Assembly: GCA_020632575.1 (NCBI GenBank) | Contig: JACKFH010000020.1 | Location: 2,849-66,848, forward strand | DNA from: Candidatus Omnitrophota bacterium | GTDB taxonomy: Bacteria; Hinthialibacterota; Hinthialibacteria; OLB16 | Direction: 5' to 3' | DNA: 64,000 nucleotides | Shown: positions 39,760-62,269 of the stretch, in pieces | Layout of the letters: every line of letters begins with the position of its first letter | Position numbering within the stretch: position 1 is the first letter of the stretch | The notes under the pieces: generated by a model | Seen by the model: the letters and a program-made list of their open reading frames with translations, nothing else | Told to the model about the DNA's origin: nothing | Database searches by the model: none | Position numbers and translations under genes: made by a program

Positions 39760-39828
39760 TGTTGAATCTCCTCCAGTTCTCTCCAGACTTCCCGCCCGAG
39801 TTTGTAGGCTACCGCCCCGGCATCTCCT

Positions 39829-40405: not shown

Positions 40406-40720
40406 ATGAAGACCATACCTCAGGATACATTTCTGAATACTGTTGAATTGAAAGGTCTTTTGAAGGAGAAAATCAAACTTGAAAGACTTGTCCGAGATTT
40501 TGGACTGAGCGGATTGGCAAAGGGCTATTGGTCGAATGCCGTGATAGTGGCGTTGGATCGGGCCTGTGGTATCCTTCCTACCGAACGTGGCCAGGGAGCC
40601 TCCGAAAATCAGGAGGTATCTCATGGGAAGATCTGTGACAAAAAGGGTAAGAATCAGAATCGGCGATTATTGGGTCACTCAGCGGAAGCGCAATTATTCA
40701 GTCCGAGGAGCGACTCCTGA
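40406..40720 (+). CDS. Small hypothetical ORF overlapping the integrase start (possible excisionase-like protein)
   Basis: Its C-terminal half is also conserved in the copy-1 region (GILTSECGQSASE vs GILPTERGQGASE). Confidence 0.35.
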   Translation: MKTIPQDTFLNTVELKGLLKEKIKLERLVRDFGLSGLAKGYWSNAVIVALDRACGILPTERGQGASENQEVSHGKICDKKGKNQNRRLLGHSAEAQLFSPRSDS

Positions 40721-41088
40721 AACCATTGGCCGCAAGTTTTTCCCTCTGGGAAATGGAGTCCGGTCGGTGGAGAGCCAACTTGAACGACTCGACCGGAAGG
40801 CATCGCAAGAAGTTCAAGGCGGGGTCTTTGGTCGAGGCGGTTGAGAAGGCGGCTCACCATTTCTTCGGAAGCAAAGGCATCAATCCGGCATCGCATATTA
40901 CGATTTCGGATTGCTTTCTCGAATGGCGGAAACGGTTATCCTGTCGCGAAGCCACCATCAAGAGGCTATCTCAAAACCTGACCCGAAGGAATCGACGGTG
41001 CCAGATCAACGCCGATGCGAGTGGGATCAAACCGAATAAATTTCTTCAGTTTTTGTCATATCGAACGAGGATGGCCCGACACTTTTGA
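40623..41088 (+). pseudogene. Tyrosine integrase N-terminal remnant, copy 2
   Basis: AGGAGG-ATG 40623; +1 frameshift in the T5 tract 40737-40741; similarity to copy 1 stops at ATCAAG 40962. Confidence 0.65.
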
Positions 41089-43017: not shown

Positions 43018-43177
43018 AGGGTTTGACCTCCGGTTCGCACGGCCAGTCGACGATATGCCCCAACTCCGAATCTGTAAATAGCGGCCAAAAAGTGAGGCGG
43101 GTGGCAGTGTAGAAGTGGAGCACCCGCGGGAGTGGGGTCCGCGTCCTAGGGTGGTTTGGTCAAGGCGTAGGGTTAGC

Positions 43178-43304
43178 AGACCGTTGAAAAACACCTCGGA
43201 CGATCTATTTTCGTAGCCCGTCAACTCACTTGCCGGGATGCGGGGAGCCTATCGGTCTATTCACACGGCAAATGAGTTGCCGGGCTACAGTTTTTCAACG
43301 GGCT
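43178..43304. mobile_element. MITE-like nested inverted-repeat element
   Basis: Outer arms AGACCGTTGAAAAAC (43178-43192) / GTTTTTCAACGGGCT (43290-43304); inner 23-bp arms 43213-43235 / 43266-43288 with 2 mismatches; TA close outside both ends. Confidence 0.65.
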
Positions 43305-43683: not shown

Positions 43684-46059
43684 TTACTCCGTAAAAAGGG
43701 GCAACGCCAGAACTTTGATGGAAAAGGGAGGAAGAACCTCACTTGACTCTTCCTTCAGTAGGATCCGCGCGGATTCATCTGAGTAATTGAGAGCGAGCAC
43801 CTGGCCATCCTCCAGGATACTGAAGAATACTCTGGGAGGATGCTGGATCTTCATCGCCTGTTTTGTCCAAGGGTGCAATTGGGGAACTTCCTTAAGGACT
43901 CCTTCGATGAAATCTCCGTAAAGTGAAATAGGCTCCATGTCTCCCGGAAAACGGAAGAACGAACCGTCCCCCGTGTCCCCTCGCTCCCACGACAAGAAGA
44001 CCGAGGTGTCCCCTTCCACGGTTTCATAGGGACCCCGGGGATAGGATGGGAAAATAACCGTACCACCAGCTCGCAGCCATCTGTCGACAATTTGTTCGAC
44101 ATCAGATGGAATGACTTTTCCCCAGCAAAACACAAGGACGGAATAACGATCCAGGAAACCCTCGCGTATCAAACGTTCGTCCAGGTAATCCACATCCACC
44201 CGGCGCCTCACTTCCGCGGCACGGGAATTGAAACCCCAGGCGTACAAATGACGGAACGTCCCATCATCAAGTTGATTCATCGTTTCCGGATAGTAGACCG
44301 CGACATCGATGACCGGAGACTGGCGTAGATCCAAGAGGTGATAATACCGAAGCCAATTCTCCACCGCGTAATCGTCGTTGAAAAGGACGCTATGGCGCGT
44401 GTAAAGGTTGGAGCCATTCGTGCTTGCGGTGCTGAAGAAACGGGCAACCACTCCGCGTGCGCTGTGGAATCCTGCTGGTTCATATCCAAGACCGATCCCG
44501 TAGAGCCGTGCAGCGGTGGCGGCAAGACGCGTGGCATAAACGTTTTGTTCAAAACTGTCTGTTTCGTTGGTGAGGCGAATCCCACCAGAAATTCCTTTCA
44601 TGGACTTTGCCTGAGCAGTGAAATCGGTCCCGGCTTCCCGATATCCCCATCCCCCGGAAGACTGGTAAATTTGTGTTTTTGGCATCGCCTTACGAGCTTC
44701 TTGGGCCCAAAAGTCGCACCATTTGGTCATGGAATCCGTGTACCATTCCGTCATGTCCAATCTGCCACGAGAGGTGCGATAGGTTTCCGGAAGCTGGGGC
44801 TTAATCTCTTGAAAGGAAACGAAATTTGTCTCCCACGCCTGATTCAAGGTCTGGATCGATCCATGCCGCTCGTTCAGGAATTCCTGGAATTCTTCCTGTG
44901 CGTAGGCGTCTCCGGCCCACCAGCCGATGTGGGCGTGCATCGATATTCCTTGATGCCCGAGCGATTTTCCGGCTCCCGCCGGATATTGAGCCTCCCCGAA
45001 ATTCCCGCTCGGACCCAATCGAACGGCTTCAAGAACGCCCATCGGCTCGTAGTGTTCACCGAAGGCTTTCAAGACCCGAGTGACATGATCCCGATTCCGG
45101 GAGTTCCAAATGCTCGGGACCTGATTTGATTCGCCATGCTCGAGACAGGTGAAACCGAGATTCGATGCGTCTTCAAAATACCAGCCGGGCAGAGCGAAGG
45201 CGGAAGTGATAACCAAGTTCGGATACCACTTGAGACCATATTCTTGGATCGCTTCGACTATTTGGTCGTAATGGGAGAAATCGAAATGGCCGGGACCTGG
45301 TTCCAGCATGTCCCATCGAACAAAACACTCAATGGAAGTGAAGCCGAGCACCTTGGCCAGAGGCGCGTATTCACGGATGTTATCCAATGAGTTTGAAAGA
45401 GATGGCGGATTCCCTACGTCCTCGATGCCCACGGTGCATGTTATTTCCATGGGCCGTTCCAGCTTCACGATCGGGGTCACTTCTATCGGTACTGCGGCGG
45501 CCAATTCTTCCCACTCCAAATCTTGCGTTACCGTAAGCAGACGCATCGATTTCAAGTATTGGAGACCCACGATTTTCAGATGGGGGTTCCTGGCATTTTG
45601 CCAATCTACACTGGGAATCTCAAACTCGAATAGGGCACGGCGCACCTTTCGCGTGTTAAGCCTTGTAAATGAAACGCTACGGGAAGGCCTCATCCACTCC
45701 CCCGTAAACCGGTCATCCCGGAGCAACATCGGCTGAATCACCCCGGCTCCCTCATCGAAGAACTCGATTTCCAAAACCAGTCTCTCCTCTTCTTGAGACA
45801 GAGGGTTCTTCAAGCGAAAAAGCCATTCGACTTTCTTGTAGGGATCGTTACCCCGTTCAATTTCGATTGCGGGTTCGCCATTTCTGACCACTTCCCGGAC
45901 CATGTCCGGATTAAGGAGTTCAACTACCCCAGAGGGCCGACCATGCCCAAATTCAATCAACAGGTTTCCCTTTTCCTCTTCCAGGGAATATCCAGGCGAT
46001 AAAGCGCTAAACAAAAAGAGAAAGCCGAGCATCGAACCTCCGCTCACTTCAAACGGCAT
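43684..46059 (-). CDS. Secreted glycoside hydrolase, GH42/GH14-like TIM barrel
   Basis: FVRWDMLEPGPGHFDFSHYD, LGPSGNFGEAQYP, C-terminal class-I-GATase-like VDVDYLDE segment. Confidence 0.75.
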   Translation of the reverse strand: MPFEVSGGSMLGFLFLFSALSPGYSLEEEKGNLLIEFGHGRPSGVVELLNPDMVREVVRNGEPAIEIERGNDPYKKVEWLFRLKNPLSQEEERLVLEIEFFDEGAGVIQPMLLRDDRFTGEWMRPSRSVSFTRLNTRKVRRALFEFEIPSVDWQNARNPHLKIVGLQYLKSMRLLTVTQDLEWEELAAAVPIEVTPIVKLERPMEITCTVGIEDVGNPPSLSNSLDNIREYAPLAKVLGFTSIECFVRWDMLEPGPGHFDFSHYDQIVEAIQEYGLKWYPNLVITSAFALPGWYFEDASNLGFTCLEHGESNQVPSIWNSRNRDHVTRVLKAFGEHYEPMGVLEAVRLGPSGNFGEAQYPAGAGKSLGHQGISMHAHIGWWAGDAYAQEEFQEFLNERHGSIQTLNQAWETNFVSFQEIKPQLPETYRTSRGRLDMTEWYTDSMTKWCDFWAQEARKAMPKTQIYQSSGGWGYREAGTDFTAQAKSMKGISGGIRLTNETDSFEQNVYATRLAATAARLYGIGLGYEPAGFHSARGVVARFFSTASTNGSNLYTRHSVLFNDDYAVENWLRYYHLLDLRQSPVIDVAVYYPETMNQLDDGTFRHLYAWGFNSRAAEVRRRVDVDYLDERLIREGFLDRYSVLVFCWGKVIPSDVEQIVDRWLRAGGTVIFPSYPRGPYETVEGDTSVFLSWERGDTGDGSFFRFPGDMEPISLYGDFIEGVLKEVPQLHPWTKQAMKIQHPPRVFFSILEDGQVLALNYSDESARILLKEESSEVLPPFSIKVLALPLFTE

Positions 46060-46105
46060 GAAGACACCTCTTGATGATCATGAATGAGTCAGCACCTCAT
46101 AGATT

Positions 46106-46504
46106 TTAGGTCCGCGCTGCCCCGAATTCTATTCGATCCGATCTGGAAACCGGGGCGCCCAAGACATGTATTTCACCATCCAGACCACTTGTGGCGATCC
46201 TCTTGTTGTCTGGGCCGAAAGGGATATCGCGGACATCACGATCTTGACCCGTCAGAGTGCCATTCTCGCCGTCAGATGAGCCGTCCAGAACCTTCGCGAC
46301 ATTCCATTCGTTTCCTGGGGCTACGATAGTTCCCGTTGGACCGAAACTGATTGGGCCAGATCCTACCAAATATTCCAAGTTTCGGATTAGTTTTTCACTA
46401 CTTGCATCCCATATCGTGGCTTGCTTGTCGGCTCCCGATGCAATTAGGCGTCCATCCGCGTTGAACGACACGATTTCGACTCCACCGATCCAAGCAGCAT
46501 CCAC
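46106..46504 (-). pseudogene. Degenerate WD40-repeat fragment
   Basis: VSFNADGRLIASG..ATIWD and LTGQDRDVRDIPFGPDNKRIATSGLDG; too short for a propeller. Confidence 0.5.
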
Positions 46505-46567
46505 TCCAAATGTATATGAGACCTTTCTGGCTCTCGCGAACCAGGGAATATCCCATGGGATACAGCC

Positions 46568-48415
46568 TTACTGGGAAAGGACGTACTCCACCAAATCGGC
46601 GATCTGGTCCTGGTTTAAACCCGAGGTTTCGCCGTGTCGGTCGTTGGGGTTATGCCAGGTCAACACATCTTCGATGGTGGCGGCGCGTCCATCGTAAAGG
46701 TAAGGCGCAGTTCGCCAGACCTCGACCAGAGTCGGGGTGTCGAACAGTTGGTTTTCTTCGTTCCCCACACCGGTGCCGACATCGTATTGTTTCAGATCGG
46801 TGAAAAGCGGGGCCGGGTGGCAAACGGTGCATCGAGCTTTTTCGAAGATGGCCTTGCCCCTCTCCGCGGATTCGGACAGCTCGCCATCGACCAGATAAGG
46901 ACTCGGAATGGGCTCGAGCGATTTTAGGTACGCGTCGATTGCCTCGGCATCTGTTTCCGGCCGTACTACGAAGAAGATAAAACGGATTCCCGCTCGGACC
47001 GCTGTTTCGGCGTCCCCACGAATTCCTGTCGACATCGCTGGCGGCGTTTGGTGGGCCAGCAGCATATTCTTCGTGTTCTTCGGATTCCCCATTCCATCGT
47101 TCAATAGGTCCCAGTTCAACCCGTCGACGCGAGCATCCGGGTGACAACTTGAGCAACTTTGCCAATGCTGAAAACAAGCGGTGGCATCGTGGAAAAGCAT
47201 TTCTCCGCGACGAACTTCCGATATTGGAGCGGTGGGCTTCAAAGAAACCGACTTCGCTCGCGGGTGATTATCCGGGTCGATGTCCAAGATTCCGAGGCTA
47301 TCCGTAAAGTATTCCGCCGCGTAGACACGAGACCCGATCACCGCCAACCCTCGTGGCCCCTCTCCCTCCAGTTTCAACCTTCTCCGAATCGAAACCAGGA
47401 AGGCGAGATCGTTGGGAACATCCTCGGGGGAGATCGAAACTTCGGTCACCGGCTCCCCCGAAGTGACCTTCGCAAGTTTCTCGTGCAAGGAGCTCCGATC
47501 AATCACACTCACTTCATGAGTTCCCGCATGGGAGACACAGAGGAAACGGCCATCGGAAGTGCATACGACACCCCAGGGATTCGCGGCGCCGAGGTCGACA
47601 TTGTCGAGAAGGACGGTGTTCAACAATTCCATCTTCTCCAAGTCGATCACGCTGAGTGCGTTCGTGTTCATCCAGCCGCGCTCAAGCTGAGTGGTGGGGA
47701 GGTGGAACCGTCCGAGGATATGGGTCACATAAGCGTATTTTCCATCCGGCGACACACAGGCCCCTCGGAGGGACGTGCTTCCGTTGGGAAGTTGAATGTT
47801 GGCTGAAACGTTATTGGATTGAGTGTCGATCAAAGTCACTTTGGCCGCCACATACTCGCCATCGCCCGGACCCGTAGGGAGGTGGTTGGCGACTACCAGG
47901 ATTGAGCCATCTGGAGTGAGCGCACATGCCACGGGCTCTCTTAAGACGGGAATCGTTGCGAGATTCTGTTTCGTTTCGGTGTCGATCACGGCGACTTCGT
48001 TGTCGAAACGATTGCAGACATACAGATTTGACCCATCGGGACTCAATGCCAAGTCTTGGGGGGTATGACCGACCGGAATACTGTCGATGATTTTAGAATT
48101 CTGTATGTCAATGACCGCCACCTGGTCTTTGGGGGAGGCGGTTGCAACATAAAGACGATTGCCATCGTGAGTGAGAGCAAGGCTTGTTGGTGGGGCGTTC
48201 AGTGGAATCTTTTCCGTAACCGTCTCCGATTCGATATCGAAAATCGCAACCTGTTGGCCGGTGTCCTCGGCAATGTAGAGGGCGCCTCCAGATGGATCGG
48301 CGATCAGGGAAAGGGGTGACGCATAATCGGAAGCCGACCCGGCGCCAAGGTTCCACAATCCAGCCAGCGTGAGGACCATCACCGACCATTTCAATTGTTT
48401 CATCAATCCAACCAT
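46568..48415 (-). CDS. YVTN beta-propeller fused to a di-heme cytochrome-c-peroxidase-like domain (HzsB/HzsC-like architecture)
   Basis: Signal peptide; repeats such as IPVGHTPQDLALSPDGSNLYV; heme motifs CSSCH and CTVCH; FDTPTLVEVWRTAPYLYDGRA. Confidence 0.88.
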   Translation of the reverse strand: MVGLMKQLKWSVMVLTLAGLWNLGAGSASDYASPLSLIADPSGGALYIAEDTGQQVAIFDIESETVTEKIPLNAPPTSLALTHDGNRLYVATASPKDQVAVIDIQNSKIIDSIPVGHTPQDLALSPDGSNLYVCNRFDNEVAVIDTETKQNLATIPVLREPVACALTPDGSILVVANHLPTGPGDGEYVAAKVTLIDTQSNNVSANIQLPNGSTSLRGACVSPDGKYAYVTHILGRFHLPTTQLERGWMNTNALSVIDLEKMELLNTVLLDNVDLGAANPWGVVCTSDGRFLCVSHAGTHEVSVIDRSSLHEKLAKVTSGEPVTEVSISPEDVPNDLAFLVSIRRRLKLEGEGPRGLAVIGSRVYAAEYFTDSLGILDIDPDNHPRAKSVSLKPTAPISEVRRGEMLFHDATACFQHWQSCSSCHPDARVDGLNWDLLNDGMGNPKNTKNMLLAHQTPPAMSTGIRGDAETAVRAGIRFIFFVVRPETDAEAIDAYLKSLEPIPSPYLVDGELSESAERGKAIFEKARCTVCHPAPLFTDLKQYDVGTGVGNEENQLFDTPTLVEVWRTAPYLYDGRAATIEDVLTWHNPNDRHGETSGLNQDQIADLVEYVLSQ

Positions 48416-48449
48416 CGCAAAAAAGTTCTCCTTCTGGAAATTCGTCTTA

Positions 48450-51400
48450 TCAGGGTCGCTCGATAATCGGGGCGTTCATGCAAAGCGGTCGGATGGGAAG
48501 CTCCTCGATACCCGCAAAGTCCGGATCGGGTATGGAGCGGAGGTCCTCCTCGCCACGATAAACACAATTTGCGTCGACCCAAGCAATGAGCCTTCTCAGA
48601 TCGACCGGATCCATCTTCCGACCGAGGTGCTCCTCATCCATGGCGACATCAATAAGCTGACTTGTATATGAAAGATGTTGCAGTGGTCGAAAAGTCTTGT
48701 AACTCTCCGGGTCTCTTTGATCGAAATCCTCGACTAACATCGCGCCAGCGATGCCTCCCATCACCAGTGAGGCATAGGGTTCGTTGAAAACGCCCGTACC
48801 GGGCCGGAAGGTCAAGTCGATTTTTTCCTTGGCTTCTCCTTCGCCTTGGTGACATTCCGCGCAATAGCGGTCCAGAACTGGTTGAACAAACTTTGTGTAG
48901 CTGATGGTCTCCGTTCCCCATGGTGGAGGGGTGAGTTCGGCCGGAGTTTGTTGAGTCATAGTATACGGACGATTGATCGGGGCGCGGCTGTGGCTTTCAT
49001 GACAACCGACACAGCTGCGACGTTCGCCTGGCATCAGCCCGGAAAAAGAGCGCATCGTTTGAAGGGCTCGGTATTGCTCGTCAAGCAATTGGAAATGGAG
49101 CGCTTTCCCTGCAGGAACTTGGAAGTACACAGAGCCATCCGGTTGAACAGGAACAGTTCCAAGAATTCTTTTAACCCCATCCGCCTGAAGAATCGAGACG
49201 ACGGGTCCGGAATACCAGTTGGGGGAGATGTCCCTGGTCCAGGTGGTCGCGGTTTTTGAATCCATTTGGATGACTCGGAGGTGTTTGACCATGCCTTGCG
49301 GAAGGTCGGGAACTCCCTCATAAATGTTGGGACTGAAAAAGATCCCGGGTTGCGGGTCCTGACGATCCGCTCCTGTTCCTGGCCAGGCCACTTGGTCGCT
49401 CTGGGTGAGAGGCTTTTGGCGTGGCCGCACTGGCATCGCGTGCCAGATGTGGTGGGCCCCCTGATAGATTAACTCCCGGTTGCCATGGACATCCATCAGA
49501 TAGAGACGGTACTTCCCGTCTCTTCGGGCGGAAACGAGAAAATCCTCCTCACCTAGGGGGAACGGGGACTTGTAAGCGTCATAAGCCCCCGCTGTGTGAT
49601 AAGACAGAGACTCGATCGGATCCAAAGGCGGCTCGCCACACTCTGGCCAGGGGACATCGGCGGTGATTTTCGTAAGCCCCTCCGGAAAATTGAAACCCTT
49701 GTTCGGATCAACGATGCCGATGCTCCCATCAAACCAGTTGTGATGAGCGGCGCCGGTGAACATGACCCGGTTGCTATTCGGAATTGGACGCGGCTCGACA
49801 AGCATGTCCGGCCAGACACTTTGGTTTCCCCAGAACACGCTGGTGTTGGTTCCATCCTGATTCACTGTCCAAAGACTCTGGATTCGCCAGAGGGCTTTGT
49901 CGGTGTATTCCCAGCGGGTGTAGATGACACGCCCGTCATTGAGAAGAGTCGGCAGCCAGTCCGGTTCGTTCCCATGACTGACCAGATAAATGTTGTCGCC
50001 GTCAGGATCGCATCGCGCCAGCACATAGGCGTAAGTGTATGGCATGCACCGGATGTAAGTGTTGCAGCGAGATGTCGAGAACATGATGTGGCCATCGGGG
50101 AGATAGATCGGATCGAGATCGTCGTAATCGCCAAATGTTAGCTGTTTAAGGCCGGTCCCATCGATGTTGATTTCGTAGAGATGGAACGATTTTTCATCGT
50201 GCGGCTTGAAGGAGGCGAGAACCCGTGTGGCGTCGAAGGAGAGATCGGGGCGCCAAAAACTCCCCGGTTTCTCCGGCATGAGTTTGCGGATGGTTCCGCC
50301 GGGATGAAGCCCCTTCAATACAAGGAGCCTCCCTCCGGGGACCGCCATCATCCCATTCCGGTGGCGAGCCTCATGGGGCCATTCCGCCCCTTCGGGGTAG
50401 GGGTTGTCAATGAAGAGGATCTCATCGAAATCGATCAGTGGGTTTTTGAACGCAATCTCTCGCTTGACTCGGCGGACCGCGAGGTAAAGGTCTTTTGAAT
50501 CGTGTTGGCCTAAGGTCAGTTGCGATTGCAGGCGTTCCAATCGATCGAGTTCATCCGACAGATCGGGAAGCTGGGACATCTTTCCAATCCGTGAAGCGAG
50601 GTCTCGCGCCCACCCGATTTCTTGCTGAGTCCGGTCATCCCAGTTCTTCCCCTCAGATTGGAACAGCCAATCTTCTTCTAGAACCAGGGTGGCTTCCTCT
50701 TTGGTCAAGGTCCGTGTTTCAGGCTCGGTCGGTTCGACATGGAGGGCGGGGGGATGCGGGATCGAGGCTCGTGTCAATTTCTGTTTGAGACGCTCGGGTT
50801 CGGAGAAGGATGGCCACTCCTCAAAGGGGAGGCCGGATCCCTTTCGTAGCCGGCTCTCGGAAGCCCAGACCCCGGAATAACCGAAGCTCGGCCGCTCGAC
50901 CGCGGTCATGCTCACGCACGCTCCCGTGGGTCCATCCACCACGAGCACACCTTTCAGAGCCGGGTCCAAAACGCTGTAATCGTTATCGGAATCATGGGCG
51001 GATTCGAGATTGGAGTAGACGCTCAGGCGAACATCCCTCAAGGTGACTTGAGAAGAGTTGGTGAGTGAGAACTCGATCCGCGCATCGGTTCCCTTCCCCA
51101 TTCTTGCGACAATTTGGAGAGTGAGTTGTTCATCCTGGTTTGCAGTTGGACGGAAATCTCTGTCTCGGACAGTTTTTGGAGAGGTTTCTGATTTGAAGGT
51201 TCTCAATGGTTCGAGGATCCTTGATTGAGATAACCGCCAGCTGGGGTTCGCCGTTATCGTAGTTGATCGAATAGCTGAATCGGCTGAGTTGTCCACCTTT
51301 GGGGGAGTTCAGCGCCTGACGGTTTCCCTCCCAGAAGAAGGCGCCCCACTCGTTCAGAGCAAGGTCGGTGATGCCATTGTCGATCCAACGAGTTCCCGGT

Positions 51401-51696
51401 GAACCTCGTTCTTCAACGCTCTCTTCGGACGCCGATGATGTTGAGGCTTCCTTCGTCGCTTCTTGGATAAGCGAAAGGAGTTTATCTCTCGATTCAGCGT
51501 AAGCGAACAAAACCGTCCTGTTCATCTCTTCGCCTGGCGCTAGTTGATCGATTTGCCAAGTCAGGATCCCGTCAGTGTTACCGAGCGATTCCAGCCCCTC
51601 TTGAACCGTTAATCCCGCGTGAAGGGCGCTCCCACCATAGAATAATAGGAATGCGAATCCCCCAACGAGGATGGTTCGGATGTGTGCTCTGATCAT
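48450..51696 (-). CDS. HzsA-like protein (propeller, hydrazine-synthase-alpha middle domain, two CxxCH), split by one frameshift near 51170-51200
   Basis: ORF 51130-51696 carries the signal peptide; ORF 48450-51296 carries LTFGDYDDLDPIYLPDG, LGTVPVQPDGSVYFQVPAG, CVGCH, CAECH. Confidence 0.8.
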
Positions 51697-51718
51697 GATG
51701 AATGATTCTCCCGGCTTT

Positions 51719-54700
51719 TCATTCGAGACTCGACACCCGAGTTCCCAAATGTTTCCTCAGTGTCCGGTCCACATAGTCCGGCCAGAGTGGGCAGTTCATG
51801 TCGATCCAGGTCTTGAAGCGACGCACCTCGTCAGTGGTCAGTTTGACTTCGTAGTGGCCCGCGTTCAGAACATCCCAGACTTTGCTCTTGACTGTTCCGA
51901 ATGTGAGGGGTTCCAGCTTTTCGCAGCCGCCTGAATTCCATCCGCAATCGCAATAGTGGACCCAGCCCTGGGAGACCAGGGTTCGGTAGGAGGCGGGAAT
52001 TCCATGTTCGTCCTGTTGTCCCGAAAGGTTCAGAGTCTCCCTTGTCTTGGCGTTGTGGCAAGAAACACAGTGCTTTTCGAGAACAGGTTGAACAATCTCC
52101 TGATAAGAAAACGGTTTTCCGCCCCAAGAGGGTGTGTCGAGTTCACGGGGGCCGCTTGCCAAGGGTTTGCGGAGGTTGGGGAGCCATCTGACGGTGTTCG
52201 TGACATCCGATGCAACTTCTTTTCTCACCGGGTTGTAGCTGGACCACGCTGCGCATCCGCTGAATCTCATTGAAATTCTCATCCAGGATTTCGAAGTACA
52301 AAACCTTTCCGGCGGGGGCATAGAAATGCGCGAGCCATCTTCTTCGACTGGAACGATTCCGAGCGGGCTTTGGCGACATAAGTGGGCCATCCGGCGGGAC
52401 CGCTCACCAAGTCGACCGGTGACACATAGAAATTCATAAAAGGCTCATGGTCGTTTCGATAAGCCCCGTTGGACAGTTGTTCGAGTTCATCCTTGACCTC
52501 TTCAACGACGCGGAGGTATTTGACCGTTCCTCTTTCGACAGCATGGTCGACTCCTTCGTAAACATCGGTCAGAAAGAACTCGCCTTGGTCGCTCGCGGAC
52601 TCCACTCGATCGGCGATCAAGGGGCTGCGGATCCTCATGATGGAAAAGGGTCGGGCAGACCGAGGAAATTTCCGGGTCGAGGTGGAGGACCTCACGATTC
52701 CCATAACGGTCGATCACATAGATCCCAAAACGTTTACGGGGAGCATGCGAGCAAAGGAAATAATCCTTGGCAACCGGAACCGGGTCACGGAAACATTCCT
52801 CTTTGGGAGGCGCACCCGGCCAAGGAACCTCGGGAGTCAAGCAGGTGATCGCTTCCGGATTGAACCGTCCCTTGTCGATGTCCACGAGAGCGATGGGACC
52901 ATTGAGGTCGCGAAATGAGAGATGAACGTGCAGCAAATCTCGTTGGTCTCCGGAACTTCCTGACCGTTTGCATAACCATTCGGCTGGATGATGTCGTTTC
53001 CAAAACCAGTTCCGGTTTCGTGCCATCGGGACGGATGCTCCAGAGGGTGTGCCCGAAATCGGCCCCTTGTCCTGGTACTCGAGCGGGTCCAGATGATTCG
53101 GCCATCGTTCATCACCGATGGGGCCCACTCGGTCAGGTTCGCGTAGGAGAGCGGGCGGATGCCTGTGCCGTCCGTGTTCATCCGGAACAGCACCGCAGCC
53201 TGCGGACGCCAGCAGAGGAACCGTTCCTTGCATCGGGTGGTGATGAACGCGAGGCCACCATCCGGCAAAGGGCATGGCCAGTAATCGTGGAAGGGACCAT
53301 CGGTCAATTTCCTCAGAGACCCGCCATCGGGATCCATGACCATGATGTGATAATAACCTCTTCGGAGGGCGGTAGGCGAAGTAGATTTGCGACAGGTCGG
53401 GGTTGGCCATCGGTGTCCGTGCGATCCCTCCCGGCTTCGAAGAGAGTCTTTACTTGAGCGCGCCCGGATCCAAACGGCCAGAGTTTGAGGGAATCTCCAA
53501 TAGGTGAATGCCTCCTCCGGGACGAAATCGTGCATCCAAATTGACGCTGTAGTTATGGGAGGGTTCAAAGGGGTGACGCTTGGCGAATAAGATCCTTTGC
53601 ATACGGGAGAGCTCCGGGTCTTTGAAAAAAAGATTCCTCTTGGCGCGGCGAACCTCGAAGAAGAAATCACGTCCCGCGCGAGAGTTCTGAAGGTTCAATG
53701 ATCCGAATCGTGAGTGTTTTTCCCGGAAGGCGCTCAACAATTCGCGTTCGCCTTGAATGTTGACCCCCTTGGATGCGAGTCGTTCGATCATTTCTTCCAT
53801 CAGATTTAGTGAACGTTTGGCGGGATCGTAGTGGAAGAGATGGAGTGAATAATCTTTGCCGTCTTCCTGGACATGGAGATCATATTCAGGCCCGATGGCG
53901 CCTTCCTGTGGAGCAATGGAGAGGATTCTCAATTCTCCCGGAGCCAATGTGAGTCCATCTTTAAGGTCAGCGGTGTTTCCTTTGAACTGAATCTCTTCGG
54001 TGGACGAAGCGACCAGACGGATCTGAAACCGACCGTTCTGATCATCTTCGATCTGTCCCATCGCAAAGTTTGAAAAAAACAAGTTAATGGGTCGGCCCGT
54101 GGGGCTCGTGTGTTTGCCACCCATGCCAAGACCCATGCGGATGCCCTTTGCCGTGCATTCGGGAATGAGGTTGAGCGGAATCTTTATTTCAAAGGCGGTC
54201 AGGTAATCGTCATAACCTCCCTCAAGCGGGGTCGTTTCCACGACATTTCCATTGCCATCGTAGGTGAGAAAAGCAAGTTCTTCTTTTTGGTAGGCGACCA
54301 CTCCGATCCCATCGCCATCGGAATTCGAGATCACGGCGAGGTGACTAGAGAGCAATCGGTCAATCCTCAGGAACAAGAACAAATTGCCGTCATGTCGGCC
54401 CGCATAAAGCATGTGTTCGACACAGGGAGACTGATTGAATCCAGCCATGTGAGCCACTCTAACCACGCCTCTCGAAGATCGCTCCCAGCATTCATCATCT
54501 GGGCTTCCATCAAGGATTGGCGCCGACTCCAGATTTGGAAGTGGAATGGTGTCATCGCCACGGTGTCTTGGGTATTCCTTGACTCGGCCGTTGTAAGGGA
54601 CCAGCTCGGAACTCAGGTCGGCGCGTCCGTGGGTTTTCAACCAAGCGTGTTCCTCTCCGAGGAAGGCATAACGTAGGAGCGAATCCTCATCCCGGATAGT

Positions 54701-55345
54701 CGATTCCAGCGTGGGAGTCTCAGTGTCTTCTTTCGAAGGCGGAGGCGGAACAGGTATTTTGCTGGGACCCGCGGAAGATGGTGCGGGAGAACGGACTTTG
54801 CGAACCGATTTCCATTCCCGACCATCGATGGATAGCAGGATTTCGAAACCGATCGGCGTCCGATCCCGATAGACTCCAGTCCGGTCGCGGGAGAAGACAA
54901 CTTCTTCGATGAGAGTGGCTTCGGGAAGTTCTATCTGAGCCCACTCATCAACCGTCCCAGCGGCGATCCAACTGTGACCGTTGCCGACCTGCCCATCATT
55001 CAGGTGGGGGATGCGATGAATGGCGTGTCCAGGAAGGCAGGAGGAGGCGGTCGCTTCGGATCCCGCCGTCGCCAGGGCCAAGTTTGTCTCCTTATCCTCG
55101 CCATAGAGTTCAATTTCATCGATGCAAGGCTCTCCGCCATTGGTGGAGGTGATCAGAAACCTGATGAATTTCGCTTCCAGTTGAGGGAAGGTGATGACAT
55201 TGGCCTTGTCGGGATGGACGGAGAGGGTGTCCACTCCGAATGCGCCGGTCAACGCCAGAAAGATGACCAGAGATCCAACCAAACTCATCGCATTCGTGTG
55301 TTTCCTCATCTGCGTCGGACTCACTCTTTTAACATGTCCCGCCAT
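51719..55345 (-). pseudogene. HzsA-like protein with N-terminal discoidin (F5/8 type C) domain; about ten frameshifts in 52140-53470 (pseudogene or sequence error)
   Basis: Conserved motifs (MANPDLS, GYYHIMVMDPDG, DFGHTLWS, GIVPVEEDG, CIGCH, CVSCH) are spread over alternating frames. Confidence 0.8.
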
Positions 55346-58149
55346 TTGTGGCGCATAGCCACCAATTCGTTTTCCTGCTCGGGGCTGAAGGATCCAGCTC
55401 GTTGCGCGTAGGTGTCGATCCAGACAATGAATCGCTCGAGGCTTTCGTCATCCAGAAAGACTCCTTCATGACCCTCAGGATCCATGACCATTGAGAGCAA
55501 GGCGCTTGTTCTGGCGGCCCCCTCGCCGGCTATCGAGCGCCCCTCCAGATAGCGGTTTTTGACATGGTCGTTCAGGCTGGGAGTTCCGAAATTCACCAGC
55601 GAATCGTAAGCGCTGGCGGAGGCTAGGTTAAAAGACGCCGCCTTGGGATCCTCTCCTTCCTGATTGTGACAACTCACGCAATGTTGATCGAGGACGGGTT
55701 GAATCAACCGATCGAACCGGAGTGGCCAAGAGCCTTCCGGTCCCGGTTCGATCTTCGAGGGCACCCGCAATGAAGCGAGCGCTTGCTTCACTGGGGGCGC
55801 CTTGAGACGCGGTTCGTGGCAACCAATGCAACTCAGAGTTTGCCCGGGTTGGACATGAGTGGTGGTCCTCATCGTTTGAATCGCCATTCCCTGCCGGTCC
55901 AAAACCTGAAAGAAAACGATGACTCCGGCGGGAACTTCGAAGTAAGCGGAACCATCCTTCTCGACAGGGACTGTCCCCAGGACGCATTTACCCGGATCGT
56001 CCTTGGTGATCCCCAACTTGGGCGAGTCCATCGTGGGCTGCGTTTTCGCGGGAACGGCAACCACCCGAAGGTTTTGGATCTCCCCTTCCTCTACATTCGG
56101 CAATCCGGAGTAAACATCGGAAATGAGGAATCTCCCCTTCATGTCCGAGTTCGGCCCGGAGCCACTCGCAAGGACTGGCGGGGTTTCGCGGGGACGAATC
56201 GGGATGGGGCACTCGGAACCGATCTCCGGGTCTCGGTGAAGGAGTTCCATGTTCCCTTCCGCGTCGAAAAGATACAGTCCCATTCCGTTGGGAGAACGGA
56301 GTTGCCCCTCACGGACTACTCGCTCTCGCGCCCAGGAAACCAAGTAGTAGCGCTCGGAAAGCGGCCATGGGCTCGCGTAGAAAGAGTCCGGCCAGTCTTC
56401 GATTTCGGGGAACGGAACCTCCGGGGTTAAACGGGTGATGGGGTCATCGCCCTCGGTTCCCACCGAGGGATCGAGAAGGACCAAACTGCCCATCGTTTGG
56501 GCATGGTGACCGGATGCGGTGAAGATGATTTTTTCTGAGCCCGGAATCGATCGGGGTTCGAATGTGCAATGCGGGGCCCGGGTAAAATTGCCGTAGACAA
56601 TCCGGGCGTTGGAGCCATCGGGGTTCGTCCTCCACAACCCCATGTAGGGCATGTTGTAACGGTCGACATAATCCCAGCGCGAGTAGAGCAGAGTCCCGTC
56701 ATTGGCCACGCTCGGGGTCCATTCAAAGTTTTCAAATGGAGAAATGGCGCATAGGTTGCCGCCATCCGGATCCATGGCGTGGAGTGTGTAGACCGCGACC
56801 GGCCGCTGGGGGCCACCGCCGCAACGGACGTAACTGTCGGGCAGGTCTGGAGTCTCAAGCGTTTTTTGGGCGCTATCATAACCGCACTGAAGAGACTGCC
56901 CTCTGCGTGTGGAAAGAAAAACGATTCTGCCGTCGGGGAGATACCTGCCATCAAAGTTGTCATACTTTCCATGGGTGAGCTGACGCGGATTGGAGCCATC
57001 GAGATCCATCTCGTAGAGGTGGTAGAAGGCGTCTTCGGGGATGTTGTCTTTGTTCAGTTTATCTGGCTCATCGGCGAGTCCCGGATATTGCTTGCACCAG
57101 GCGAAGAGGACTTTGTTCGCGTCGTAAGAAAGCATCGGCCTTAGGAAACTTCCCGACTCGGTGAACCTCTCACTGATACACTCGACCCTCGGGGAGTCAC
57201 TCTGGAAATCCCGGAGAATGTAGAGGCCGCCGCCGGGGCGCGACCACCAACCATAGTATTGATCGGACATGTGGCTGTAACTGCCCGGCACACGTTTCAC
57301 AAAGAGGATCGAATCGAAATCGAGCAAGGGATTCCGAAGGGTCAGGGATCGTTGAAGCCAAAGGGCCGCAAAGTAGTCTTTTTCTCCCACCTCCCTCGGA
57401 GGTTCGGCGTCCAACTTCGCTTGCATCTCCTCGACCTCAAACAGATCTTGGCCGACATCCAGGCCAGATTCTTTGAGGTCGGCAACCAAGCCCCGCGAGT
57501 GAACGAGAATCTCCACGACACGTTTTCGCCAATCGATTGATTGTACGGAGTCTTTTCCGGCCGACCACTGAGAGATCGAACTCTGGTTGGCGGGCTGGTT
57601 CAGCGCCAGGTTCTTGGCAGGTTCATGGGGACCGAAAACCTCGATCTCATCCAGGTGCAGAAAATCGTTATCCTGAAGCTGAATTCGAACGAACCGGGTT
57701 TCTATCTCATTGATCTCGACTTCGAGTGGCTGGTTATCGCTGAAGCCATAGAACTTTGTTCCGTCGTGGTAATAAACGGTTTTCCATTCTTTGCCGTCCT
57801 CGGACAAAAGGACCATGAGACGGAAAGCGCGTGGCGCCACGCCATCGCAGCGGTTCCAGATGACAACCCTGGAAACAGGTTGAACCTCACCAAGGTCGAC
57901 TTGCCACCAAGGCCTGCCCTGCCTGTCCGTGTGAAATCCCCAGCCGCCATCGACGATTCCATCGCAGCCACCGGCAGCGTCGGATCGGGTGCTGGTTCCC
58001 AGATTTTCCCTGAGTAGCCAGTCGTTCTCGACCTGATTACGGAACAATAGGTCCCTCTCGTTTGGAGAAGCCCAAGCGAATAGGGCGAAGAAAACGGCCC
58101 CGTATAAAAAATAAAATGGTACTATTTTATGATTAATAGGGTGCATCAT
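55321..58149 (-). CDS. Intact HzsA-like protein with N-terminal discoidin domain and two CxxCH
   Basis: WWQVDLGEVQPVSRVVIWNR, LTHGKYDNFDGRYLPDG, SRWDYVDR, LGTVPVEKDGSAYFEVPAG, CIGCH, CVSCH. Confidence 0.9.
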   Translation of the reverse strand: MMHPINHKIVPFYFLYGAVFFALFAWASPNERDLLFRNQVENDWLLRENLGTSTRSDAAGGCDGIVDGGWGFHTDRQGRPWWQVDLGEVQPVSRVVIWNRCDGVAPRAFRLMVLLSEDGKEWKTVYYHDGTKFYGFSDNQPLEVEINEIETRFVRIQLQDNDFLHLDEIEVFGPHEPAKNLALNQPANQSSISQWSAGKDSVQSIDWRKRVVEILVHSRGLVADLKESGLDVGQDLFEVEEMQAKLDAEPPREVGEKDYFAALWLQRSLTLRNPLLDFDSILFVKRVPGSYSHMSDQYYGWWSRPGGGLYILRDFQSDSPRVECISERFTESGSFLRPMLSYDANKVLFAWCKQYPGLADEPDKLNKDNIPEDAFYHLYEMDLDGSNPRQLTHGKYDNFDGRYLPDGRIVFLSTRRGQSLQCGYDSAQKTLETPDLPDSYVRCGGGPQRPVAVYTLHAMDPDGGNLCAISPFENFEWTPSVANDGTLLYSRWDYVDRYNMPYMGLWRTNPDGSNARIVYGNFTRAPHCTFEPRSIPGSEKIIFTASGHHAQTMGSLVLLDPSVGTEGDDPITRLTPEVPFPEIEDWPDSFYASPWPLSERYYLVSWARERVVREGQLRSPNGMGLYLFDAEGNMELLHRDPEIGSECPIPIRPRETPPVLASGSGPNSDMKGRFLISDVYSGLPNVEEGEIQNLRVVAVPAKTQPTMDSPKLGITKDDPGKCVLGTVPVEKDGSAYFEVPAGVIVFFQVLDRQGMAIQTMRTTTHVQPGQTLSCIGCHEPRLKAPPVKQALASLRVPSKIEPGPEGSWPLRFDRLIQPVLDQHCVSCHNQEGEDPKAASFNLASASAYDSLVNFGTPSLNDHVKNRYLEGRSIAGEGAARTSALLSMVMDPEGHEGVFLDDESLERFIVWIDTYAQRAGSFSPEQENELVAMRHKWRDMLKE

Positions 58150-58308
58150 CCCGCCTCCTCAAACCAAGACCAAGCCGATTTTCAGCCTTTTTTGCGGTCT
58201 CGGCTACCCCATTTCTTTCGCGTTTCTAGCTCGCAGGTTGGAGGAATCGAGTTCTTCTTCTAAACCGGGGCCATGAGGACTGTTGATTCCATTGACCTTC
58301 TCGGCATC

Positions 58309-60771
58309 TCAGTGGACGGGGATGGGACCGCTGAAACGGAATCGGTGGACCGGGAGGGGACACTCCGAGTCGACCCCTTTGACGCTTTTCCAGATGATCT
58401 CATTGAGCGCGAACATCGGTGCACGGTCGTATTCGGAAAAGTCCATACGCAGAGATTCCTCCGCTCCCCAGGCGGTTTTGGGATTCTTCTCATCGAGATC
58501 GATATTTGGCTTGAGGTGGGCGTACTCCACCGGGTGGGCCTGGTCGGTGAACGCGGCATACATCGGTGTCGCGGCCGCATCGTACTGGCTCATCGGTTGT
58601 AACCCCAATAGGAGTTCAATGGTGCGAAGGACGGAACAGGTGGTGTAATGGGTGCTGTCCACATACCCGCGTCGAGCATAAGGACTGGCAAGCAATCCCA
58701 CCGTTCGGCGAGCGTCGACATGATCCGGACCGTCCTGGGCGTCATCCTCAATGGTGAAGACCGCCATCTCTGGCCAGTAATGGCTGTGTGAAACGCGGTC
58801 CAGAATCTGGCCCAATGCATAGTCATTGCTGGCGACACAGGCCCGTGTCGTGGGTTTATCCGGTGAGGTCCCATGTGTGTGGTCTTCGGGTAGGGCCAAC
58901 ACAATAAAATTCGGGAGACGTTTTTCCGGGTCTGGGTTGTCGAAATTCTTGTCGTATTCGTCGAACTCACGAATGAATTCGGCGGCGTTTTCCGTATCGC
59001 GCGCGCCCCACGACAAGTAATTGGGAGCGATGTGCCCCTCCAATCGAGCGAAGGCGGCGTTTATGGGTTTCATCGTGCCTTTTTCGCTTTGGCGTTCGGC
59101 AAACTCACCATAGGTCCGATAAGTGAGGCCTTTCATGGCGCATTGGTCCCAGAGATAACCAGAGGGGGGAATCATCGCCTCGGAGCGTGGAGCCAAACTC
59201 TTCCCGCCATAAGCGGCGGGCCAGGATTTCTCCACATAATCGGTGGCGTAAGCGGCGTTGGACCATTGGTGTCCATCGGCGCTGACCTCGGCATCGCAAT
59301 AGAGATTGTCGAATAACACAAACTGTTCGGCGATGGCGTGATGGTTCGGTGTGGTCTCCTTTCCGAAAAGGCACAAGTTGGGATCGCCGTTGCCCTGGGG
59401 AAGATCGCCAAAAACCTGATCGTAGGTGCGATTCTCTTTGATGATGTAGAGCACATGTTTGATGGGTGACCCGGCCCCAACAACACTGGGAACCACGGAG
59501 GGTGTGCCTGAGGTTGGCGCCGCTTGCGCCAATAGTTCGTCGTTGTAAGGACAGTTTGCATAGACCTGTCGTGTCAGTTCAGGAAGCCGGGACCGATACT
59601 CATCGATTTCGAGGGTGTTGACCGCTCCCTCCATCAGAGTCTTGATCGTTTCGGTTTTCTCGTTCTCTTTGGGGTTTGGTCGCCTGGGCCCCTGGGGAGT
59701 GGGATAGGACCCGAGGCCTTTGGAATTTCCAATAAAAAGTTTCTCGCCATCCGGGCTGACAGCCAGGGCGGATGGGTACCAACCTGCCGGAATGAATCCC
59801 AAAACCGTGGTTTCCTCGGGCTCCTCGACGTCCACGACACAGATGTTGTTGTTATCCGCGTTGGCGACATACAAAGTCTCCTCTTCGGGATCGAGACAAA
59901 GCGCATTGGGTGTCGAACCTTCCGGGGCGCGTTCGTAGAGCGAGGTCACGATGGTTCCGATGGCTCTTCCTTTCTCCGTATCAACCAGAGTGACTGCGTT
60001 ATCGTTGGAGCAGCACACATACAGGATCCCTTTACTCGATAAGACCATGTCGGTGGGATTGTCCCCGACTCCGATGGTTGCCGTGGTTTTCAGGGAATTC
60101 GTGTCGATGACACTGACTGTGTCCGCGGCCCAGTTCGAACAGTACAGAGTTTTTCCATCGGAGGTCAGGACAAGGTCGCAGGGATTTCTTTCGACTCCGA
60201 CACGACCCACCGACTCCCCAGTCTTGGTATCGAAAACAACGACCTCGTTGCGCTCGCGGTTGGCGGCGTACAGCAAATCTTTCTGGGGATGGTGCGCGAG
60301 GCCCGACCAGAAGATCTCCGCCTGCGGGAGATCTTGCTTGAGGTGGGCAAGCGGGGTTTCGCTGAGGATTTCATCCCGATACTCGAAAACGTAGATGGGG
60401 GCGCGGCTCTCCTTGCTCCTCTTGTCGTTTCCGCCCGAGACGTAAAGTTTGGAACCATCGGGACTCCAGGCCAATCCGAACCAGGCGGTGGGGACCGGCA
60501 CTTGTTGCCGAACCTCTCCCGAGGCAGCGTCGATGATCACGAGACTGTGTGGGTTGTACCCGCAGGTGAGCGCAACCACTCCCCGTCCATCCGGGGTGGG
60601 AACGAGATTAAGAATCAGGTCGTTGGTTTCGACAGACTTCCCGACCGGTGTGATCCTCCACCCATTCGGCAGTTCATAACCCTCCTTTGTGGGACCCGGC
60701 CACTCCGCGGAAAAGGTCGAAGGGCTGATCACCAAGAGGAGTAATAGGGAAATTGAATGGATGTGTCTCAT
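58309..60771 (-). CDS. Secreted YVTN beta-propeller plus phosphoesterase/alkaline-phosphatase-superfamily protein
   Basis: LPNGWRITPVG; IKHVLYIIKENRTYDQVFGD; SADGHQW; EDDAQDGPDHVDARR. Confidence 0.9.
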   Translation of the reverse strand: MRHIHSISLLLLLVISPSTFSAEWPGPTKEGYELPNGWRITPVGKSVETNDLILNLVPTPDGRGVVALTCGYNPHSLVIIDAASGEVRQQVPVPTAWFGLAWSPDGSKLYVSGGNDKRSKESRAPIYVFEYRDEILSETPLAHLKQDLPQAEIFWSGLAHHPQKDLLYAANRERNEVVVFDTKTGESVGRVGVERNPCDLVLTSDGKTLYCSNWAADTVSVIDTNSLKTTATIGVGDNPTDMVLSSKGILYVCCSNDNAVTLVDTEKGRAIGTIVTSLYERAPEGSTPNALCLDPEEETLYVANADNNNICVVDVEEPEETTVLGFIPAGWYPSALAVSPDGEKLFIGNSKGLGSYPTPQGPRRPNPKENEKTETIKTLMEGAVNTLEIDEYRSRLPELTRQVYANCPYNDELLAQAAPTSGTPSVVPSVVGAGSPIKHVLYIIKENRTYDQVFGDLPQGNGDPNLCLFGKETTPNHHAIAEQFVLFDNLYCDAEVSADGHQWSNAAYATDYVEKSWPAAYGGKSLAPRSEAMIPPSGYLWDQCAMKGLTYRTYGEFAERQSEKGTMKPINAAFARLEGHIAPNYLSWGARDTENAAEFIREFDEYDKNFDNPDPEKRLPNFIVLALPEDHTHGTSPDKPTTRACVASNDYALGQILDRVSHSHYWPEMAVFTIEDDAQDGPDHVDARRTVGLLASPYARRGYVDSTHYTTCSVLRTIELLLGLQPMSQYDAAATPMYAAFTDQAHPVEYAHLKPNIDLDEKNPKTAWGAEESLRMDFSEYDRAPMFALNEIIWKSVKGVDSECPLPVHRFRFSGPIPVH

Positions 60772-61612: not shown

Positions 61613-62269
61613 GTGCCTCAAATCTTTCACCAAAGCGCGAATGTCCTCGCAAGATTCCTGATCGTCTCTTTGGTTATCCTTATATTCACAGTAAGCGCGG
61701 TCGCAGTTGCGTACTATCGATCTTCTTATTCCACCAAAGTCGGGGTGACCATCGACCAACCCGTTCCTTTCAGTCACCAACACCATGTTCAAGTCCTTGG
61801 TGTCGATTGCCGTTTTTGTCACAACTCGGTTGAAACCAGCAAAACGGCCAGCCTCCCCGCCACTGAGATATGCATGAAGTGTCACTCCCAGTTGTGGACC
61901 AACGCAAATCTCCTCGCTCCGGTGCGGGAGAGTTTCGAGAACAACGAACCGATTCATTGGAATCGAGTTCACAAACTTCCCGACTTCGTTTTCTTCAATC
62001 ACAGCATCCATGTCTCCAAAGGGATCGGATGTTCGACATGCCATGGAAGGGTGGATCGAATGCCGCTGATGGCCAAGGCCGAATCCCTCCACATGCAGTG
62101 GTGCCTACAGTGTCACCGCAACCCGGAGATTTTTGTCCGCCCGAAGGATCAGGTTTTCGAGATGACCTACCCGCTGGAACCCAACCCTGAGCAAGCGGGA
62201 CAACAACTCGTGGAGACGAATCAAATCCAAACGAGAGGATTGACCGACTGTCAGACATGCCACCGTTAA
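61613..62269 (+). CDS. actA: Alternative complex III pentaheme cytochrome c subunit
   Basis: MPQIFH N-terminus, TM anchor, QPVPFSHQHH, five CxxCH motifs (CRFCH, CMKCH, CSTCH, CLQCH, CQTCH). Confidence 0.92.
   Translation: MPQIFHQSANVLARFLIVSLVILIFTVSAVAVAYYRSSYSTKVGVTIDQPVPFSHQHHVQVLGVDCRFCHNSVETSKTASLPATEICMKCHSQLWTNANLLAPVRESFENNEPIHWNRVHKLPDFVFFNHSIHVSKGIGCSTCHGRVDRMPLMAKAESLHMQWCLQCHRNPEIFVRPKDQVFEMTYPLEPNPEQAGQQLVETNQIQTRGLTDCQTCHR

Follow-up and report, generated by a model that had tools for sequence, protein, structure and literature searches.

A 64,000-nucleotide stretch of a Candidatus Omnitrophota bacterium assembly (GCA_020632575.1, contig JACKFH010000020.1, positions 2,849 to 66,848; hereafter the window, in whose coordinates positions are given) carries on its minus strand three genes related to the alpha subunit of hydrazine synthase (HZS), HzsA, followed by one gene for a fused counterpart of the HzsB and HzsC subunits (beta-gamma). 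The three alpha proteins and the beta-gamma protein are whole-length homologues of HzsA and of HzsB plus HzsC, respectively. To our knowledge, hydrazine synthase was long believed to be without relatives. Our analysis indicated that this locus is likely one of two haem gene clusters of HZS-like type in a glycan degrader that is rich in sulfatases and not an anammox organism, and that it would encode an exported alpha/beta-gamma haem enzyme with exchangeable, lectin-tagged alpha subunits and glycan-derived substrates. Judging from the residues that it lacks, the cluster almost certainly does not make hydrazine.

A preliminary description of this stretch had proposed the gene set, its order and its extent (46568-58149), and all three were borne out by open reading frames (ORFs), Pfam matches and motifs. 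The four genes, in the order in which they are read, are as follows:

55321..58149, minus strand: alpha1, 942 amino acids (aa); signal/anchor peptide, F-type-lectin/discoidin domain, TolB-like propeller, HZS_alpha middle domain and C-terminal haem domain
51719..55345, minus strand: alpha2, HzsA-like with a discoidin N-terminus; 3' half broken by indels, with an intact N-terminal ORF at 53450-55345
48450..51696, minus strand: alpha3, HzsA-like, directly upstream of beta-gamma; present as two ORFs, one of 188 aa with the signal peptide (51130-51696) and one of 948 aa (48450-51296)
46568..48415, minus strand: beta-gamma-like fusion, 615 aa; signal peptide, YVTN propeller and di-haem CCP/MauG/HzsC-like domain

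An N-terminal signal peptide was found on every cluster protein, and c-type haem motifs (CxxCH) occurred twice in each alpha protein, approximately 50 residues apart, and twice in beta-gamma. Intergenic gaps among the four genes ranged from -25 to 34 nucleotides (nt), the latter separating the end of alpha3 from the start of beta-gamma, and the four genes therefore form one tight unit. The Pfam family HZS_alpha (PF18582, gathering cut-off 26.6 bits) matched alpha1 at 81.9 bits, alpha3 at 92.1 bits and a fragment of alpha2 at 48.7 bits, and alpha1 additionally showed a weak PD40 match. Discoidin N-termini had been described for two of the paralogues, and F5_F8_type_C matches confirmed them in alpha1 (57.1 bits) and in the 631-aa N-terminal ORF of alpha2 (33.5 bits). 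The DNA of alpha2 also holds the propeller and two haem motifs (CIGCH, 52200-52214; CVSCH, 52055-52069), and those of alpha3 are CVGCH (48999-49013) and CAECH (48849-48863). The features expected of three alpha paralogues (propeller, HZS_alpha domain and two CxxCH motifs each) are thus present, but alpha1 is the sole intact HzsA-like frame of the three, alpha2 and alpha3 being broken. Likewise, the paralogues are indeed adjacent but not recent duplicates; recent tandem duplication was rejected, as they share only about 30% mutual identity and fall in separate deep clades that represent ancient subfamilies. The haem motifs of alpha1 and beta-gamma are located as follows:

55816..55830, minus strand: alpha1 CIGCH, counterpart of the haem alpha-I site, with EPRL next; aligns with HzsA CSGCH-YGSY
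55666..55680, minus strand: alpha1 CVSCH, counterpart of the haem alpha-II site; aligns with HzsA CAMCH
47141-47155, minus strand: beta-gamma CSSCH, CxxCH motif
46817-46831, minus strand: beta-gamma CTVCH, CxxCH motif

Homology to hydrazine synthase was assessed against the Kuenenia stuttgartiensis enzyme (PDB 5C2V; NCBIfam NF052339-NF052342). In phmmer comparisons beta-gamma matched HzsB (5c2v_B) at 131.9 bits and HzsC (5c2v_C) at 100.6 bits, which together with the Pfam matches upheld the earlier description of a YVTN propeller fused to a di-haem CCP-like domain, and the best PDB match of its AF2 model was again HzsB (5c2v_B; E 3e-27, TM 0.83). The match of alpha1 alone to HzsA was weak (28 bits, phmmer); a profile of 25 alpha-like sequences matched 5c2v_A at 161 bits (E 3e-46) in four stretches that together take in the propeller, middle domain and the two CxxCH motifs. 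A Foldseek search with the AF2 model of alpha1 (pLDDT 75) also returned 5c2v_A as the best PDB match (E 5e-27, TM 0.60 over 834 columns), followed by TolB (1e-9). Since the comparisons with 5C2V chains A, B and C agree at the levels of sequence, profile and fold, the cluster can be regarded as the architectural counterpart of HzsA and a fused HzsBC that it had been taken for, and as their evolutionary counterpart too. Domain order and fold match for all three subunits, both alpha and both gamma haem motifs align with those of the K. stuttgartiensis enzyme, beta and gamma are fused as in HzsBC of Ca. Scalindua, and a D-x-H-G-x-T-S motif near the gamma C-terminus is common to HZS and the window protein. 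In contrast to HZS, identity is just 17-26%, alpha precedes beta-gamma, extra N-terminal lectin modules occur, and the host does not belong to the anammox bacteria and has no hdh/hao partners in its assembly.

Within beta-gamma, a 7-bladed YVTN propeller spans residues ~25-381 and the di-haem domain residues ~400-612, with exactly two CxxCH motifs at CCP-like spacing in the C-terminal 215 residues. This spacing, together with an above-gathering match to CCP_MauG (PF03150; 33.2 bits against a cut-off of 25.6) that covers just the first ~40 residues of the model, suggests kinship with the di-haem CCP/MauG/MbnH superfamily. Unlike CCP and MauG, the domain is joined to a YVTN propeller, and its C-terminal ligand region is closer to that of HzsC than to the Met or Tyr regions of those enzymes. 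In the alignment to 5c2v_C, a Ser occupies the position of the CCP inter-haem Trp and HzsC His144; the column of gamma-His144 has been equated with the electron-transfer Trp position of CCP (PMC12758564).

Key features specific to hydrazine synthase were lacking. Scores against the NCBIfam HzsA equivalog (NF052339, cut-off 800 bits) were 46.8 bits for alpha1, 43.9 for alpha3, and 56.6 and 74.2 for alpha4 and alpha5, two alpha proteins encoded elsewhere in the same genome; beta-gamma scored 203.4 bits against hydrazine_BC (NF052342, cut-off 1250), 138.4 against beta (560) and 94.2 against gamma (625). The haem alpha-I ligand of HzsA is Tyr591, located four residues past the CxxCH histidine (CSGCHYGSY). 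A ligand of this type was absent from alpha1 (CIGCHEPRL), alpha2 (CIGCHEHRQ) and alpha3 (CVGCHESHS), so that the haem ligand comparison suggested in the preliminary description revealed no Tyr-ligated haem alpha-I site in any of the three, and Tyr at H+4 was not among the common variants in the 120 alpha1-type homologues shown. Gamma-Cys165 of HzsC attaches haem gamma-I through a third covalent bond; the phmmer alignment to 5c2v_C places it opposite a gap in the window protein and pairs gamma-His144 with the Ser of PPAMSTG, in a column that was variable in 20 homologues. The Zn site of HzsA consists of alpha-Cys303 and His587; the propeller segment of Cys303 aligns unreliably with the alpha-like profile, and a near-invariant C422 (motif STRC) is present in alpha1.

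A CxxCH census of ORFs of at least 100 aa combined with NCBIfam scans identified no HAO/HDH-like octahaem protein in the 5.55-Mb assembly: the sole ORF with eight CxxCH motifs is a member of the tetrathionate-reductase octahaem family and the 7-haem ORFs are DmsE/GSU2203-like. The census is consistent with a non-anammox host. A PF13447 search for HAO/HDH gave no match in the assembly, but control genomes were equally silent. With haem alpha-I sites that are plain CxxCH without Tyr, gamma-His144 and gamma-Cys165 missing and no hydrazine/hydroxylamine oxidoreductase in the assembly, hydrazine synthesis by this cluster is contra-indicated, and the N-N chemistry proposed earlier lost its support.

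Conservation of the arrangement was surveyed in 80 related loci, 55 of which had enough upstream sequence, and in 35 species genomes of the window's own phylum in our collection. An alpha-like gene lay less than 2 kb upstream of beta-gamma on the same strand in 37 of the 55 loci, with two or three alpha genes in 14 of these, and alpha-to-beta-gamma gaps were commonly below 350 nt. Within the phylum, 24 genomes possessed both genes, one possessed alpha only, none beta-gamma only and ten neither (HZS_alpha in 25, beta-gamma in 24; Fisher p ~6e-8, uncorrected for phylogeny). The order of alpha before beta-gamma, often with two or three alphas in series, thus recurs in many genomes and phyla. Copy numbers per genome ranged from 1 to 16 for alpha and from 1 to 3 for beta-gamma. 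A tree of 65 alpha-like sequences resolved several deep subfamilies, with alpha1, alpha3 and alpha4 placed in a clade of mostly non-adjacent alphas, and a subfamily of ~850 aa with three CxxCH motifs was adjacent to beta-gamma in 10 of 10 cases. The closest named orthologues of alpha3, alpha4 and alpha5 are from Hydrogenedentota. In a relative from the same family (locus L016, genome G003), orthologues of alpha1, alpha5 and alpha4 surround one beta-gamma gene, which indicates that alphas have been reshuffled among beta-gamma clusters. A second beta-gamma subtype was also observed in the phylum (e.g. G025:C208:6525-11963 and G013:C124:20966-26308), its frames measuring 950-1000 aa at 32-33% identity. 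An alpha-like gene of reduced length (~700 aa) lies a few kb away, and the subtype is probably the published clade I/II type with extra N-terminal haems.

By far the commonest non-alpha neighbour elsewhere is a two-domain gene of ~375 aa (FkbO/Hyg5-N plus Ribonuc_L-PSP, or Rid), which immediately follows beta-gamma in 27 of 66 loci (e.g. L005:11802-12932, L016:11833-12912 and L043:11839-12999). It is absent from the window cluster; tblastn detected no Rid-like gene or remnant in the 508-nt gap that follows beta-gamma or anywhere else in the window. Among 40 beta-gamma-adjacent alphas of other loci, an FGE-sulfatase domain was found in 15 and laminin-G in 2. The FGE-sulfatase (SUMF1-like) fusions measure 1130-1470 aa (e.g. 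L020:3746-7765, L032:5434-9684 and L043:5842-9936; also in L002 and L003).

The second HZS-like cluster of this genome is a tight operon on contig C32 (C32:6113-18738; L090:1113-13738). Its order is a ceramidase-like gene, an esterase (BD-FAE)-GH29 alpha-L-fucosidase-F5/8C fusion, alpha4 (837 aa), alpha5 (956 aa), BC2 (598 aa, 60% identical to the window beta-gamma) and a FkbO-N/Rid-like gene (382 aa), whose product, the sole copy inspected, has no N-terminal signal peptide. The genome encodes ~50 sulfatase genes and ~14 genes with FGE domains, and GH38, GH99-like and PF12831 proteins as well as a sulfatase are encoded in the window itself. The N-terminal module of alpha1 can be read in the same context:

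57631..57981, minus strand: F5/8C (F-type lectin-like) domain of alpha1, residues 57-173; motif H-x26-R-x-D-x4-R

Residues 56-173 of alpha1 matched the fucose-binding lectins 4gwi and 3le0 in phmmer (E 4e-10; 4gwi_A E 3.8e-10), as well as FBP32 and a fucolectin-related protein, and the F-type lectin motif, sought as H-x(26)-R-x-D-x(4)-R/K, was present as H73...RCDGVAPR. The domain thus shares a putative fucose-binding motif with F-type lectins such as the lectin domain of Streptococcus mitis Sm-hPAF (PDB 3LE0/4GWI), but differs in being the N-terminal module of a 942-aa haem protein. The motif was strictly kept in 45 of 117 full-length alpha1 homologues, and the discoidin domain of alpha2, as read from its sequence, is without it. 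Database relatives of the alpha1 type (~950 aa, with discoidin and HZS_alpha domains) number more than 3356; identity is 60-94% among the top 120, which derive from Hydrogenedentes, Phycisphaerae, Planctomycetes and Verrucomicrobia. The carbohydrate link drawn in the preliminary description is plausible given this lectin motif, the GH29 fucosidase of the C32 operon and the abundance of sulfatase genes.

This can be interpreted as an enzyme system in which alpha and beta-gamma would probably form a periplasmic complex, by analogy with HZS, with the several alphas serving as exchangeable substrate-recognition/catalytic subunits that share one beta-gamma. The di-haem CCP/MauG-like module of beta-gamma may take electrons from a cytochrome or activate peroxide. 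More tentatively, the substrate could be glycan-derived, perhaps fucosylated or sulfated, with the lectin/discoidin modules of alpha1 and alpha2 targeting it for a redox step beyond the reach of glycoside hydrolases. A broader proposal, which we put forward as speculation, is that alpha(n)-betagamma, often with the Rid/FkbO-like gene, might constitute a new class of periplasmic c-haem enzymes in glycan degraders, where one di-haem engine is combined with exchangeable alphas that select the substrate through lectin, laminin-G or FGE-like modules for the peroxide- or cytochrome-driven oxidation of fucosylated, sulfated or amino sugars resistant to hydrolases; it might also represent the pool from which anammox HZS was recruited. 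The HZS-like family is large and, as predicted from sequence, exported and haem-binding, with approximately 60% identity across phyla and thousands of alpha-like proteins; the beta-gamma type is present in at least 598 species genomes and has more than 7692 database relatives of ~615 aa. Cultured carriers include Anaerohalosphaera lusitana, Victivallis vadensis and Opitutus terrae, and a control search flagged a homologue in Bacteroides thetaiotaomicron. The clues from this locus are circumstantial, namely ancient alpha subfamilies sharing one beta-gamma, lectin-type modules, the operon link to a GH29 fucosidase and a sulfatase-rich host. Its chemistry, if worked out, could bring to light a redox step new to polysaccharide turnover, as well as the activity ancestral to hydrazine synthase.

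Several observations weigh against this interpretation. The cytoplasmic Rid/FkbO-like neighbour points to small-molecule rather than glycan chemistry, the 80 related loci have varied flanks in which glycan genes occur without dominating, and alpha1 orthologues often stand alone with no beta-gamma neighbour. Confidence in the di-haem domain of the beta-gamma AF2 model is low and does not allow its ligand geometry to be read, and alpha2 and alpha3 may truly be dead in this strain. The assembly is also only ~69% complete by marker count, so that the lack of hao and hdh genes in it is not absolute.

Non-anammox clusters of this kind have already been published, and the locus repeats a known observation rather than offering the novelty implied in the preliminary description. 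Hagglund et al. (2025, Genome Biol Evol) described co-located alpha and fused beta-gamma homologues in non-anammox bacteria, assigned them to clades I-IV, and found key residues unconserved, leaving function open (PMC12758564). Suarez et al. (2023) reported hzsABC-like genes in Phycisphaerae UBA1845 and suggested a broader family of HZS-like enzymes with other substrates (PMC10732223). The window cluster displays the traits of these non-anammox systems, with PF18582 above gathering together with haem motifs and an adjacent fused beta-gamma. As in the clusters of Hagglund et al., the gene for an HZS_alpha protein bearing two haem motifs precedes that for a beta-gamma fusion of YVTN propeller and di-haem domain, the key HZS residues are not conserved, and hosts are PVC-type and other heterotrophs. 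In contrast to those clusters, three alphas of different ancient subfamilies here precede one beta-gamma, two of them with discoidin/F-type-lectin N-termini. Alpha homologues were called 'few' in that study, whose main text is without mention of discoidin or Rid (PMC12758564), whereas the alpha1 subfamily alone yields the several thousand database matches given above.

The published clades are marked by an FG-GAP/CRTAC1 gene (I-III), extra haem motifs on beta-gamma (I and III) and an alpha without haem II (II and III) (PMC12758564). No FG-GAP gene was seen between or beside the cluster genes among window ORFs searched with Pfam, beta-gamma has no extra haem motifs and the haem alpha-II motif is kept, so the cluster is clade-IV-like by exclusion and, by its sequence features, would most resemble the loosely described clade IV of Hagglund et al. 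Literature searches found nothing linking hydrazine synthase with fucoidan, and nothing on YVTN/CCP/RidA in Planctomycetes.

The broken frames of alpha2 and alpha3 bear on how much of the cluster operates in this strain, and every frame-breaking indel of the two genes falls in one segment:

51135..53463, minus strand: contiguous 2.3-kb indel block containing every frame-breaking indel of alpha2 and alpha3

By tblastn and frameshift-aware alignment to a 1216-aa orthologue from genome G014, alpha2 regains its frame with 9-12 single-base corrections, all between 53463 and 52160, after which it is 51% identical to the orthologue with no in-frame stop. In alpha3, two single-base deletions, one near 51188 and one near 51135, cut off the N-terminal signal-peptide ORF; the alpha3 orthologue in a Hydrogenedentota locus (L007, 62-71% identity) is one 1100-aa ORF adjoining its beta-gamma gene. 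We consider it fairly probable that these breaks are a local assembly error rather than gene death, since the indels, most of them deletions, are confined to one block that crosses the gene boundary, lie nearly all in runs of 3-5 identical bases and leave no in-frame stops, and the corrected frames keep 51-64% orthologue identity, as in the intact parts. Alternatively, alpha2 and alpha3 may be true pseudogenes of a cluster decaying in this strain, in which just alpha1 and beta-gamma would be functional. This alternative retains an appreciable, if smaller, chance: at least 11 frame-breaking single-base indels are required across the two genes, and frames elsewhere in the assembly, including those of the ~50 sulfatase genes, are mostly intact, which indicates that the assembly is not riddled with indels throughout. 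The confinement of the indels to one homopolymer-associated block across a gene boundary, and the uninterrupted frames and undiminished identity after correction, argue against decay.

A second alternative is simple co-regulation of the genes without complex formation, beta-gamma being a periplasmic peroxidase that removes H2O2 and the alphas independent lectin-tagged cytochromes or binding proteins. The above-gathering CCP_MauG match, the frequently solitary alpha1-type orthologues and the excess of alpha over beta-gamma copies are in line with this idea, but we judge it improbable, as co-occurrence in the phylum is near perfect with beta-gamma alone in no genome, adjacency is tight (gaps commonly <350 nt, 34 nt here), one alpha subfamily adjoins beta-gamma without exception, and the electron-transfer Trp position of CCP is Ser in the window protein. 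Nearly as improbable, and slightly more so in our assessment, is a MauG-like protein-modifying system in which beta-gamma oxidatively matures a cofactor of alpha or modifies client proteins such as sulfatases. Such a role would fit the FGE-sulfatase fusions of 15 of the 40 beta-gamma-adjacent alphas elsewhere and the sulfatase complement of the genome, and beta-gamma does match MbnH, MauG and His-Xaa-Ser-associated MauG-like families weakly (34-39 bits); these matches, however, lie far under their cut-offs, no FGE domain occurs on the window alphas, alpha4 or alpha5, and no sequence pointer to a client protein was found.

Proteins of the Rid/FkbO-like family deal with intermediates of the reactive nitrogen or enol type. 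An N-N bond-forming enzyme, whether a cryptic hydrazine synthase or another, acting on NO/hydroxylamine and an amine, possibly an amino sugar, would accord with such a gene following beta-gamma in related loci and in the C32 cluster and with whole-length homologues of all three HZS subunits in one operon, but is very improbable in view of the absent Tyr591 ligand, gamma-His144 and gamma-Cys165, scores at 4-16% of NCBIfam equivalog cut-offs, the lack of an HAO/HDH-like octahaem protein in the assembly, the occurrence of the family in hundreds of ordinary heterotroph genomes and a published analysis that concludes alike (PMC12758564). An exported alpha/beta-gamma haem enzyme with exchangeable alphas therefore remains our preferred interpretation.

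The four cluster genes belong to a run of six consecutive genes for exported proteins on the minus strand (43684-60771), whose outer members are:

58309..60771, minus strand: exported 820-aa protein with YVTN propeller and phosphoesterase (PF04185), identified by Pfam and NCBIfam; lies 159 nt upstream of alpha1
43684..46059, minus strand: exported GH14/GH42-like (beta/alpha)8 glycosidase, 791 aa; Pfam Glyco_hydro_14 53.2 bits, Glyco_hydro_42 48.1 bits

The GH42/GH14-like enzyme had been noted previously and is present 508 nt downstream of beta-gamma, but as a conserved member of the system it was rejected, with no tblastn match in the 80 related loci. The YVTN-phosphoesterase was rejected on the same grounds, being near such a cluster in just 1 of 80 (L068). 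Immediately downstream of the GH14/GH42-like gene lies a PF12831 FAD-dependent oxidoreductase (41383-43224, minus strand; 613 aa, 260 bits), which has paralogues on contigs C29 and C98 and whose family occurred twice among the flanks of related HZS-like loci. Four ORFs at 37957-41088 (600, 250, 104 and 120 aa) were without a Pfam or NCBIfam match.

Multihaem cytochrome ORFs with 43, 19, 15, 13 (three ORFs) and 10 (two ORFs) CxxCH motifs were also found in the genome, for example on contigs C54 (a 1882-aa ORF, minus strand), C1, C79, C40 and C116. Cytochromes of this size are unusual for a glycan degrader and suggest extracellular or metal-linked electron transfer. On the plus strand of the window, a pentahaem QrcA/ActA-like cytochrome (218 aa, five CxxCH) is followed by a QrcB/ActB-like molybdopterin-family subunit (61613-63999); these genes are the start of a Qrc/alternative-complex-III type respiratory operon that runs off the window.

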